Shown: positions 8,944 to 63,980 of the stretch, piece by piece
Layout: each line of letters opens with the position of its first letter
How positions within the stretch are numbered: the first letter of the stretch is position 1
Assembly (NCBI GenBank): GCA_964016885.1
Contig: OZ024750.1
Coordinates: 22,196,001-22,260,000 of the forward strand
Origin: Eledone cirrhosa
Lineage: Eukaryota
DNA length: 64,000 bases
Reading direction: 5' to 3'
The notes under the pieces: generated by a model
Seen by the model: the letters and a program-made list of their open reading frames with translations, nothing else
Database searches by the model: none
Told to the model about the DNA's origin: nothing
Translations under genes and position numbers: made by a program

Positions 8944-9211
8944 TATTTCATTATACATATTTCAAGGACACCAAAGCAGATTATGGCGCGCTTTCATCAG
9001 ATAAAATATAATATAGATCAGTTTTATAAACAAATATTGACATACCCTTAAAAGAATGCGACCATGTCTGTTGGGAGCTTCCAACAGACATGGTCGCATT
9101 CTTTTAAGGGTATGTCAATATTTGTTTATAAAACTGATTTATATTATATTTTATCTGATGAAAGCGCACCATAATCTGCTTTGGTGTCCTTGAAATATGT
9201 ATAATGAAATA
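8944..9211. mobile_element. Fold-back family A palindrome (~270 bp, centre AGCT 9076-9079) with a hammerhead in each arm
   Basis: Arms nearly perfectly complementary; right arm runs into the N gap. Confidence 0.85.
9147..9211 (+). ncRNA. Type I hammerhead ribozyme (family A); mirror copy 8944-9008(-)
   Basis: Stem I UAUUUUAU/AUGAAAUA; CUGAUGA at 9155; stem II AAG-GCACCA/UGGUGU-CUU; GAAA at 9192; stem III AUAUGUAU; AUA cleavage triplet. Confidence 0.8.
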
Positions 9212-9212
9212 A

Positions 9213-9412
9213 NNNNNNNNNNNNNNNNNNNNNNNNNNNNNNNNNNNNNNNNNNNNNNNNNNNNNNNNNNNNNNNNNNNNNNNNNNNNNNNNNNNNNNNN
9301 NNNNNNNNNNNNNNNNNNNNNNNNNNNNNNNNNNNNNNNNNNNNNNNNNNNNNNNNNNNNNNNNNNNNNNNNNNNNNNNNNNNNNNNNNNNNNNNNNNNN
9401 NNNNNNNNNNNN
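9213..9412. other. Assembly gap (200 N)
   Basis: Run of n. Confidence 1.
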
Positions 9413-9841
9413 AAGCCAAACGACTATGTAGATGGCTCCTCGTTGTATAGGAATGGTTTATTTATGTTTTGCTGACACTGTGAACAATGTTGAGGCAGAA
9501 GAAAGTCACGTATTGTCAAACTGTTCTTGTATGACTTATAGTTAACATTTAACGCAGCTAGTGTGTGTGTGTGTTTGTGCGTGCATGTGTTCATGTGTGT
9601 GTGTGAGTGCATATGTGTATATATGTGTGTGCGTGTGTGAGCGTGTGTGTGTGCGTTTTCGTATGTGTGTGTATACGCGTGTGTGTATATGTGTCTGTGT
9701 ATGTGTGTCCCTTTGTATGTGTGTACATATGTGAGGGGGTGAACATACGAGGCTTCGTTGTGATTTCGATTACTGACAGTGACTTGTGATTCTCTAGTTC
9801 TCTTCCCTAGCAAAATTGAGTTGTACCTTTAATTCAAAGGA

Positions 9842-10092
9842 TCAGTCTTTTCAAACACTGCTCCATACCGAATCTCCCTGAGAACTGTGCCTGCGTTAAG
9901 AGTGTCAGCCTTTTCAAACACTGTGCCATACCGAATTTCCCTGAGAACTGTTCCTACGTTAAGGTGTCAGCCTTTTCAAATACTGTGCCATACCGAATCT
10001 CCCTGAGAACTGTGCCTACGTTAAGGGTGTCAGCCTTTTCAAACACTGTGCCATACCGAATCTCCCTGAGAACTGTGCCTACGTTAAGGGTG
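9842..10092 (+). repeat. Tandem repeat, ~62-63-bp unit x4, derived from an S2 SINE body
   Basis: TCAGCCTTTTCAAACACTGTGCCATACCGAATCTCCCTGAGAACTGTGCCTACGTTAAGGGTG repeated head to tail; continues into SINE 3' sequence. Confidence 0.9.
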
Positions 10093-10380
10093 CAAATATC
10101 CATAGAATACTCATTGAGTTTTTGACCAGGCTGTTACGTTGATTGAATCAACTGGAGCACTCATCTTCGCGACCCACGGAGATCCAATACACATAACATG
10201 GTTGAATGTTTAGAAAAGAAATGTTATTGATCACAAAACACAGTTGTATGTGTCTGCTCATCAGAGGGCTGCTCGTTACATTTAGTAAGACTTTGCTGAC
10301 GGATTGTTAACATATTAGGGAAGTAACGGAGATTAAAACATCTGGAGCTGGCTGGGTACCTTCTGGGGTGATGTTTTATA

Positions 10381-10578
10381 GAAGAAGAAGAAGAAGAAGA
10401 AGAAGAAGAAGAAGAAGAAGAAGAAGAAGAAGAAGAAGAAGAAGAAGAAGAAGAAGAAGAAGAAGAAGAAGGGGTAGGATGAGGAGGTGGGAGGAGGAGA
10501 AGAAGAAGAAGAAGAAGAAGAAGAAGAAGAAGAAGAAGAAGAAGAAGAAGAAGAAGAAGAAGAAGAAGAAGAAGAAGA
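10381..10578. repeat. (GAA)n microsatellite
   Basis: Direct reading; similar tracts at 14484-14633 and 52620-52738. Confidence 0.95.
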
Positions 10579-61400: not shown

Positions 61401-62599
61401 GTTTTGCTGCACGTTTTGCTGCACGTTTTTTTTCTTACACGTTGTTCCTATGCATTTTATCTACATGTGTTTTTGTTACACGTGTTTTTCCTAGATTTTT
61501 TCCATGAATGAAAGGAATGTCCAACTCATCATTAACTACTTACATTATGCTTATAGTTGAGATATATTTACAATTCTATTAGCTTAATCGACATAATCTG
61601 TCGAAGAAAGCAACATCTGCCCATAAATATTTAAGGTACCGCCCAGATATTTAAATTTCACAAATTTGGGGAAAAATTAATTCTTTAAAAGTACAAACTC
61701 ACAAAAAGAGAAACATAATACAATAGTAATGGAAATGCTGTTGATAAAGTCACATCGCTTTAACCCTTTATTTCTTGTTAACCATTATTGACGCTTCTAA
61801 TACTATAGTCTTTTGGGGGATTCTTTACGTTTGAAGAAATGTATGTGTGTGTATCTATATGTGTATGTGTCTGGTGGTGGTCATGGTGGTGATGGTGGTA
61901 GTGTTGTTGATGGTCGTGGTGGTGGTGGTGGTGGTGGTGGTAGTGGTGATGGTAGTCATGGTGGTGATGGTGATGGTGGTGGTTTTGGTGGTCGTTGTGG
62001 TGGTCATGTTGGTCATGGTGATGTTGGTGATGTTGGTGATGATGGTGGTGATGGCGGTGATGGGGGGGATTCTTTACGTTTGAATAAATTCGGTACTTGA
62101 ATTTCCCGCTAACTCTCGGTGAGCGGGAGGGGGGGGGGGGGGGGGTTAGCCTGACACTGTGATAAAGTTGGCCCTTTGAATCACAGGTGCAACTCATATT
62201 TTCCAACTGAGTGGACGACTAGAGCAACGTGAAATAAAGTATCTTGCTAAAGAGTACGTCGAACAACCGGGAATCGAACTCATAACCTTATGATTGTGAG
62301 CCGAACTCCTTAACTTCCCCTATACCACACGACTTCACCCAGGTTCTATAGTATTGTCTATAGTATTTACAATACAGTTCTATATCATTATGTAGCATCT
62401 GTAGTATTTATAATTCAGCTGGAGTTTGCTTTTTTAATGTAGCTCATTTTATACTTATAACATTTTTAGATCACTGAGTTAATGGTGTCTTTTCCTCACA
62501 GTATAAGTGTTATTAATTAAATTTGTAATACCCTCTAGATTAAATATGTTAACACTAACTTAACTACTTATTATTTATTAGTATTAGCTTAGTATTGGT

Positions 62600-62687
62600 T
62601 TACATGTCTTCGCGCCTCATTTCCGTATAACTCTGTCCTACTAAATCTGACACTGAGCTAAGGTCATAGAAATTATGAGAGCCACAT
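62600..62687 (-). CDS. Possible terminal coding exon of an upstream gene
   Basis: Pyrimidine tract and AG, then CGSHNFYDLSSVSDLVGQSYTEMRREDM-stop; no partner exon in the window. Confidence 0.25.
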
Positions 62688-62980
62688 CTTAAATTGAGAA
62701 AGAAATTAAAAAAGAAACAAATAAGTAAAGAAAGAAAGAAAGAAAGAAAGAAAGAAAGAAAGAAAGAAGTGTTCTGCTTCACTGGATAGTACAAGTTTAT
62801 AGTTATTTATGTCGGTCGGTTGCATCAGAACAGGTCCCTGCTAAACTAAATATCCAAATATATTTCAGTCTCTTTCTCTCTCTCTATATATATATATACG
62901 TATATGTATATATATATAGAGAGAGGGGGGGGCTGACAATAAGAAGTCTGAATTGCAGCTTCTTATGAAACTTTATTGCA

Positions 62981-63025
62981 TATTACAACTGTTTCAATAT
63001 CGATCAACTCGGGTTTCATCAGGCG
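62981..63025 (-). ncRNA. Decayed hammerhead
   Basis: CUGAUGA-AA..CGA-GUUGA-UCG..UU-GAAA-CAGUUG-UA; stem I does not pair. Confidence 0.45.
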
Positions 63026-63132
63026 ATCGGATCCCGACTCTTAAACCTGAAGCACAGCCCCACGAGAGACGGACCCCCTAACAGCATCGAGTGCTTAAAC
63101 TTTAATCTGTTATTTATATATATATATACACA

Positions 63133-63980
63133 CCAAGATATTAATAAATGGAAACTATATTTATAAAACCATATTTATTTGATTATATATATTTCAAGGG
63201 CGACCAAGCCCATCTTGGTGCGCTTTCATCAGATAAAATATAAAATTTGTTTTATAAATAACGACAAACCCATGCAAATCAACCTTAACGGTCGGAAATT
63301 CGCTGAATAGTGGAAACTTTTTACAGGTAATTCAACGTTATGTGTGAATATGCAAATGAATGTATGAAAAGTTGAAAAAACAACCGTTTATTTAAATTAC
63401 GCTGGAAAAAAGATAGGGAAGAAAGAGAAGAGAGAGAGAGAAAAAGAGAGAGAGAGAGAGAAAAAATTACAGTAATTTTCTCTCTCTCTCTCTCTCTCTC
63501 TCTCTCTCTCTCTCTTTCTTTCTCTCTCTCTCTCTCTCTCTCTCTCTCTCTCTCTCTCTCTCTCTCTCTCTCTCTCTCTCTCTCTCTCTTTCTTCTCTTT
63601 CTTCCCTATCTTTTTTCCAGCGTAATTTAAATAAACGGTTGTTTTTTCAACTTTTCATACATTCATTTGCATATTCACACATAACGTTGAATTACCCCTA
63701 AAAGGTTTCCACTATCCAGCGAATTTCCGACCGTTAAGGTTGATTTCCATGGATATGTCGTTATTTATAAAACAAATTTTGTATTTTATCTGATGAAAGC
63801 GCACCAAGATTGGCTTGGTCGCTCTTGAAATATATATAATCAAATAAATATGGTTTTATAAATATAGTTTCCATTTATTAATATCTTGGAACACTTACTC
63901 CAGTTATCTGTTGAGTGCTCTATATCAGTTATAAACACTTATGTTTGTCGGAATTCCAACAAATTAAATACAACTTCTAC
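63133..63980 (+). mobile_element. Family A fold-back element: ~750-bp palindrome (centre 63471) plus tail; hammerheads at 63176-63240(-) and 63782-63846(+)
   Basis: Arms complementary apart from scattered substitutions and (CT)n length; stem II ACCAAG/CUUGGU; tail TGAGTGCT at 63912. Confidence 0.9.

Follow-up and report, generated by a model that had tools for sequence, protein, structure and literature searches.

Self-pairing stem III octamers in Penelope-like element hammerheads of the octopod Eledone cirrhosa: probable selection on an inter-copy RNA helix

A 64,000-nucleotide stretch of the Eledone cirrhosa genome (GenBank assembly GCA_964016885.1, contig OZ024750.1, positions 22,196,001 to 22,260,000; hereafter the window) contains hammerhead ribozyme motifs in which stem III is built from a short self-complementary word. 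The best explanation, which we consider quite probable, is that these are hammerheads of the pseudo-long terminal repeats (pLTRs) of Penelope-like elements (PLEs), and that two such octamers pair with each other as a double hammerhead under selection in master elements. The anatomy of the motifs, their link to an element and the pattern of conservation are established. Furthermore, the idea that the pairing of stem III between copies is maintained by selection, put forward in an initial annotation of the window, is well supported by family statistics, mirror counts and a wobble path between words.

All six octamers named in that annotation were found in the window between the GAA and the cleavage triplet, which is the location of stem III in type I minimal hammerheads. 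The accompanying claim that the palindrome is kept while the word changes holds for the named words, which are self-complementary. The family A pair that opens the studied feature (9000-/9155+) departs from this, reading AUAUGUAU and self-pairing solely via G·U. There are four informative letters per octamer, as the outer A15.1-U16.1 pair is invariant and the next pair is needed by the monomer too. The features carrying the octamers are as follows.

8946-9006 (-) and 9149-9209 (+): inverted pair of family A (putative Hydra-clade PLE pLTR), AUAUGUAU, the G·U form; followed by an assembly gap
13895..13980: inverted pair of minimal hammerheads with a U3-A8 core, ACACGUGU at 13966-13973 (+) and 13902-13909 (-), stem II of 2 bp; related to the 33560 family
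16467..16559 (+): CUGAAAGA-core hammerhead whose stem II spans 61 nt, ACAAUUGU at 16545-16552; truncated inverted partner upstream, octamer end 16462 (-)
17180..17236 (-): 17181-family hammerhead, AUAUAUAU at 17187-17194; same word as family A, different stems I and II
18853-18913 (-) and 19235-19295 (+): family A inverted pair, AUAUAUAU, octamers at 18860 (-) and 19281 (+)
23480..23530 (+): CCGA-core hammerhead, ACAAUUGU at 23516-23523; its clade has CAAUUG, CAGUUG and CAGCUG subfamilies
31933..31983 (+): decayed CCGA-core hammerhead, ACGAUCGU at 31969-31976; resembles the 23516 clade
33187-33248 (-): family A copy, octamer at 33194 (-); core-less inverted partner from 33273 (+), feature to 33484; sense in the last intron of a host gene described below
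33559..33651: inverted pair of the 33560 family, ACAAUUGU at 33566-33573 (-) and 33637-33644 (+), 2-bp stem II; minus copy sense, in the same intron
46263..46506: inverted pair of the 46261 family, AUGCGCAU at 46270-46277 (-) and 46465-46472 (+); plus copy with a 27-bp duplication; stem I as in family A
54448..54509 (-): single hammerhead of the 54450 family, AUGAUCAU at 54455-54462
63178-63238 (-) and 63784-63844 (+): family A inverted pair, AUAUAUAU, octamers at 63185 (-) and 63830 (+)

A canonical type I core (CUGANGA, GAAA...UH) is present in family A and at 17181, 33560, 46261 and 54450, and four named sites carry variant cores, namely CCGA at 23516 and 31935, CUGAAAGA with a one-base insertion at 16545, and UUGAAAA (U3-A8) at 13966. 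Of 12 representatives, 11 have a stem I of 4-8 contiguous bp and the 31935 copy has one of 2 bp; stem II is only 2 bp long in the 33560 and 13966 families. The six named words are a selection: other motifs in the window have AGUACU (17451), the non-palindromic AGAACU (38895) or other stem III lengths, such as 9 nt at 32380 and 16 nt at 22088 and 49412. No second copy of the 54450 family was found among the loci compared.

Enrichment was assessed in an unbiased sample of the 3.0-Gb genome, consisting of 80 pieces of 10 kb (800 kb) at round coordinates fixed beforehand. A first structural scan, which was blind to the inner pairs and imposed no palindrome condition, gave 117 matches compared to 2 in decoys of reversed sequence. 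Palindromes were more frequent in this sample than expected by chance, with perfect ones making up 34 of 43 four-nt, 28 of 39 six-nt (35 when G·U is counted) and 12 of 14 eight-nt inserts. A wider scan, in which only the outermost insert pair was required and which covered the 800-kb pieces and the window, returned 179 matches and 3 decoys. When each family with a 4- or 6-nt insert was counted once, leaving out window-only families, the innermost pair was Watson-Crick in 15 of 21 families (null 0.276, binomial p ~4e-5, an optimistic value given the kinship among families and the fact that some are represented by one decayed copy) and Watson-Crick or G·U in 20 of 21. Counting each distinct word once gave 11 of 16 and 15 of 16, respectively. 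Extrapolated from the sample, the density of hammerhead-like motifs would be about 1 per 5-7 kb genome-wide.

TATGTA and TACATA are one DNA duplex in two orientations, and an asymmetry in their counts therefore favours G·U pairing in the RNA strand over a DNA palindrome. A genome-wide pattern count for family A with any hexamer allowed gave 31,421 matches, among which UAUGUA (the G·U form, AUAUGUAU, and the majority form of the family) occurs 17,937 times, UAUAUA 11,847 times and the mirror word UACAUA, with A·C, 47 times. The remaining 1,590 matches are spread over about 34 single-change words (mean ~47), and by our estimate the 47 mirror copies look like the neutral level. Similarly, the 23516 clade, with 6,315 genome-wide matches, has 767 copies of CAGUUG (G·U) versus 14 of its mirror CAACUG (A·C). 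This control was run on two lineages, in each of which the G·U and A·C forms were about equally likely beforehand, and the copy counts are not independent events.

These counts bear on the alternative that the palindrome reflects a monomer hairpin, a protein site at the level of DNA or a mutational artefact of fold-back insertions. Most copies do reside in inverted duplications, and a monomer-type stem III is found in other families of this genome; moreover, CACGTG matches an E-box, and TATATA resembles a microsatellite. A monomer, however, offers no reason for the innermost pair, and the strand asymmetry in both lineages speaks for pairing in RNA, so this alternative is already largely refuted and we regard it as extremely improbable.

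The path between words can be followed in the 23516 clade, for which a midpoint-rooted tree of 33 copies was built with the hexamer removed (rows chosen by likeness to locus L073, plus L048 and the window copy, and leaving out L111, a duplicate of L112). The CAGCUG copies form a clade (100/95) nested among CAGUUG copies, and both together stand apart from CAAUUG at 100/100, with three word changes on the tree, the minimum. CAAUUG, CAGUUG and CAGCUG are thus linked via a wobble step; the G·U word lies on the path either way, and its direction is what we infer. Double changes separate the sister families CAAUUG/CACGUG (33560 vs 13966), UAUAUA/UGCGCA (A vs 46261) and CAAUUG/CGAUCG (23516 vs 31935). 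In the 13966 family the octamer is intact in 14 of 28 copies and old copies decay in all directions, which is the behaviour expected of dead copies. The core change from C3-G8 to U3-A8 is seen in 23 of these 28 copies, which were picked by likeness to one having U3-A8; the variant has been described in Schistosoma (PMC4209133).

By computation, helix III is short, palindromic and unstable as a monomer, as in the minimal type I class. The monomer stem III hairpin is predicted at +2.4 to +4.7 kcal/mol, the 6-nt insert being able to form no more than a hairpin whose loop has 4 nt, while the homoduplex with a second copy has 8 bp and -2.2 to -11.1 kcal/mol. For each of the 12 representatives, the double hammerhead is more stable than two active monomers by 11-20 kcal/mol, in folding energies that omit the tether entropy over 3.9 kb. 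Dimer folding, cleavage, a partner in cis rather than in trans and any role in vivo are predictions of the following model. The transcript of an active element would carry one hammerhead per pLTR, neither of which would close stem III alone. The two octamers would pair mutually over 8 bp, and the 5' stem I strand of each copy would join the 3' strand of the other, so that, by structural reasoning, one copy would contribute the core together with its 5' stem I strand, and the other the UH site and the 3' stem I strand on which these act. Such a double hammerhead would cut at both pLTRs, release a unit-length RNA and keep its ends together, and selection in master elements would keep the word self-pairing at the RNA level. 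Unit-length RNA from mutually cutting pLTR copies was proposed by Cervera (2014), and the minimal hammerhead of Schistosoma is inactive as a monomer and weakly active as a dimer or trimer (PMC4209133).

The carrier of family A was reached through same-strand matches about 3.8 kb apart, which led to locus L161. Its order is (TA)n, a 208-bp repeat, an open reading frame (ORF) of 748 aa, 1.4 kb, a second 208-bp repeat and (TA)n. The direct repeats are 99% identical and begin 15 nt before the hammerhead core, the hammerheads are 3,868 nt apart and the unit measures about 4.1 kb. Read by eye, the protein has DKT (not DKG), YRDD, a CxCX5C linker and a GIY-YIG-like end without CCHH. The carrier is therefore probably a Hydra-clade PLE, with a single reverse transcriptase (RT) and C-terminal GIY-YIG ORF between hammerhead-bearing pLTRs. 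Searches of Pfam and PDB with the 748-aa ORF gave no match. It has 23 unnamed or hypothetical homologues at 31-37% identity; a 35%-identical homologue matches RVT_1 (E 9e-6) and a 55%-identical piece matches GIY-YIG (E 5.5e-4), both below curated cut-offs. Other traits of the Hydra clade are present, namely (TA)n insertion, partial tandems and inverted 5'-truncated copies, and family A, with a pLTR at L161:357-564, has at least 31,421 pLTR copies genome-wide. Related ORF pieces adjoin 46261-type (L023) and 23516-type (L117) hammerheads, which suggests that these families also belong to the Hydra clade. For families 17181, 16545, 33560/13966, 54450 and 31935 no ORF was firmly tied to a hammerhead in the loci examined, and their architecture suggests that they too are PLEs. 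A CCHH-type GIY-YIG piece at L060 was considered as the ORF of the 17181 family and dropped, as it lies nearer the hammerhead of another family.

The window itself holds truncated, mostly inverted dead-end copies only. The initial annotation expected the ribozyme to work only in tandem-copy transcripts or in trans; the relevant tandem would be the two pLTRs of a full-length element such as L161.

The same helix could serve another purpose. A self-pairing helix might be selected for RNA dimerisation, or for joining the pLTRs for the RT-endonuclease protein in ribonucleoprotein assembly and template jumping, with catalysis secondary or gated by protein. The ribozyme of Poseidon, a PLE of anoles, cleaved only with the element's protein, which is a predicted dimer, and was dispensable for insertion in vitro, where ribozyme mutants still insert (PMC11167929). 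In addition, the odd-core families (CCGA, CUGAAAGA) still keep the palindrome. Set against this, dozens of families have conserved the catalytic core and the UH site, with covariation from C3-G8 to U3-A8. We consider this alternative unlikely as a replacement for the double hammerhead, with which it is compatible.

In addition to the Poseidon findings and the reservations attached above to the p value, the mirror counts and the folding energies, several points weigh against a selected double hammerhead in PLE pLTRs. No RNA-seq reads ended at the Poseidon cleavage site (PMC11167929). The palindrome is lacking in the AGAACU family, which has 8 copies at 5 loci, and in several 9-nt CCnnnGG families. 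Partners within 4 kb of 43 six-nt matches were inverted only in 23 cases, in both orientations in 3, absent in 17 and direct only in none, in a count edge-limited by the 10-kb pieces; almost no genomic copy can thus use the dimer mechanism. Rfam hammerhead models were absent among the 150 of 309 window matches listed, where Rfam and repeat-finder results were dominated by microsatellite matches, and no Rfam hammerhead reached the gathering score in 5 loci. A match to Rfam is not a defining trait of the minimal class, which was itself defined by descriptor search.

The suggestion in the initial annotation that the octamer acts as a family-specific pairing code is not supported, since families share words even when their stem I strands do not match. 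AUAUAUAU occurs in families A and 17181 and in that of L029, and ACAAUUGU in 23516, 33560 and 16545, among which the stem I strands pair over 0-1 bp. Ten families use five words, compared to 7.8-8.7 expected (P 0.001-0.025, with UAUGUA counted with UAUAUA and a statistic that ignores shared ancestry). Selection for divergence of the word among families, which would confine dimerisation to elements of one kind, would be consistent with the mispairing of different perfect palindromes (1-4 mismatches, +9 to -2.7 kcal/mol) and with three lineages that combine a compatible stem I with a different word: A and L029 vs 46261, 33560 vs 13966, and 23516 vs the CAGCUG subfamily. However, any two palindromes mispair and are orthogonal by construction, the words are fewer than expected, both helices are compatible between family A and that of L029, subfamilies remain cross-compatible via G·U forms, and a cis partner needs no code. 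Moreover, the word would drift by steps from A-U through G·U to G-C, so that the differing words of families would be a by-product, and such drift accounts equally well for sisters that share stem I but differ in word. We therefore judge selection for different words very unlikely.

Only stem I and word combined give a near-unique identifier. Specificity would need stem I as well, which is also intermolecular in the type I double hammerhead and may supply much of it. An unlikely extension is that stems I and III form a two-part address, in which selection makes the palindromes of co-active sister families diverge where stem I has stayed the same; the sister pairs concerned would be A vs 46261, 33560 vs 13966 and 23516 vs the CAGCUG subfamily. 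If true, the address would protect elements from mutual cleavage with their relatives and with the tens of thousands of dead copies that lie in host transcripts, and would amount to a ribozyme-based form of kin recognition among retroelement RNAs.

Two of the hammerheads lie in the sense orientation within a host gene.

32654..40437 (-): host gene comprising lectin-like/CUB-like exons and one transmembrane exon; Octopus bimaculoides and Argonauta hians have homologues
40437-40073, 38303-37943, 36757-36617, 34302-34213 and 32932-32654 (-): approximate host-gene exons

The gene is 76% identical to the Octopus bimaculoides protein over one exon, and four exons have canonical AG/GT ends, the transmembrane exon having been placed by alignment. 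The last intron (34212-32933) contains two sense hammerheads of different families (A and 33560), 350 nt apart, which are unable to pair (stem I 0 bp, 3 mismatches), and this fits the earlier idea that single intronic copies are harmless. Each sense copy also has an upstream antisense copy, giving a long predicted hairpin of -130 and -164 kcal/mol for the folded stretches. Harmlessness of single intronic copies is plausible but would be over-determined, because both sense copies are folded in antisense hairpins and a related ribozyme cuts only with the protein of its element (PMC11167929). The 46261 copy was also considered as intronic and was dropped, as the candidate first exon (51453-51385) scored weakly (39). 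About 220 nt past the host-gene stop, and possibly in its 3' untranslated region, is a monomer-type sense hammerhead with an ACC-UUU-GGU stem III (32373-32440, -), followed about 45 nt further by ATTAAA; its stem II looks decayed.

Several other observations were made on hammerheads of the window and of the sampled loci. The AGAACU family has been amplified with its non-palindromic stem III (window 38861-38907 (+), L014, L038, L053 and L061); neither its monomer nor its dimer helix is stable, and it may have been dead from birth or form tandem A·A pairs. Families with a long stem III retain palindromic centres (window 49384-49434 and 22058-22110; L017, L042 and L060), such as CUAG in a 14-nt insert, CAGAGCUCUG, and GAGCUC in a 17-nt insert, which suggests dimers even where a monomer hairpin is possible. 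The monomer-type CCnnnGG families have in common a GACGT(T/A/G) motif in stem II (L014, L016, L021, L029, L090 and window 32434), possibly a tertiary contact or a second pairing site. The 16545-type family, with its extra core base and 61-nt stem II (window 16467-16559; L099-L106, L011, L061 and L073), appears young, as many copies are 100% identical over 70 nt, and a first look gave 1,014 candidates. Degenerate hammerhead-like motifs are present as an inverted pair at 13368+/13617- (13350-13630) and as singles at 3715- (3630-3730) and 63022- (62978-63028), the last carrying ACAGUUGU. The window also has a LINE-type retrotransposon with a 1,181-codon open frame and RVT_1 (E 5e-23) at 27783-31325 (-).

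PLE hammerheads may or may not matter in vivo: they cut poorly in vitro, and the single reconstituted system inserted without them. This genome offers evolutionary evidence of selection on an inter-copy RNA helix in master elements, and contains a Hydra-clade element in very many copies. It also provides a natural allelic series for testing (CAAUUG/CAGUUG/CAGCUG and UAUAUA/UAUGUA/UGCGCA), together with an intact-looking element.

Small-stem-III PLE hammerhead variants that cleave as dimers were reportedly the subject, by title, of a 2017 paper by Lunse, Weinberg and Breaker. The double-hammerhead idea and the architecture are not new, having been in print since 1988 and 2014. The palindromic loop 3, dimer dependence, location in PLE pLTRs and compensatory changes between families have already been published (PMC4209133 and the reviews PMC6765202 and PMC6466107), and both reviews describe small-stem-III PLE hammerheads with the same palindromic short stem III, PLE link, dimer cleavage and tandem arrangement. 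The metazoan PLE hammerheads of PMC4209133 resemble ours in their type I topology, in a helix III that is short and palindromic, in the dimer model, in the number of families within one genome and the compensatory changes among them, in the U3-A8 variant, in the pLTR location and in copies that are single or on opposite strands. Avocado sunblotch viroid (ASBVd), newt satellite 2 and non-LTR retrozymes also have a weak helix III, a palindromic loop and activity as dimers, but are short head-to-tail repeats (PMC7229834), whereas the octamer families are dispersed PLE ends, with no direct-only case among the 43 six-nt matches. Head-to-tail repeats of a few hundred bp were found for the CUAG and CUAAUUAG families only, as retrozyme-like arrays at L085 (G000:C28:110.0 Mb, period ~422 bp, CUAG insert) and L058 (G000:C3:255.0 Mb, period ~556 bp, CUAAUUAG insert). 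Known Hydra-clade PLEs share DKT, the CxCX5C linker, absence of CCHH, a single ORF, the hammerhead and (TA)n insertion; their unit is 'generally <3 kb' compared to about 4.1 kb here, and the clade was described as a small set of families (bioRxiv 10.1101/2021.04.23.441226), one of which here has the pLTR number given above. In the literature searched, with subscription papers and supplements outside its scope, no report of a pairing code, a wobble path or octopus hammerheads was found. As far as that search shows, the octopod Hydra-clade examples, the mirror counts and the wobble path are apparently new. Compared to the accessible text of PMC4209133, this octopod genome differs in that the 6-nt insert, giving an 8-bp dimer helix, is common, and adds whole-genome counts of G·U versus A·C and a resolved wobble path.

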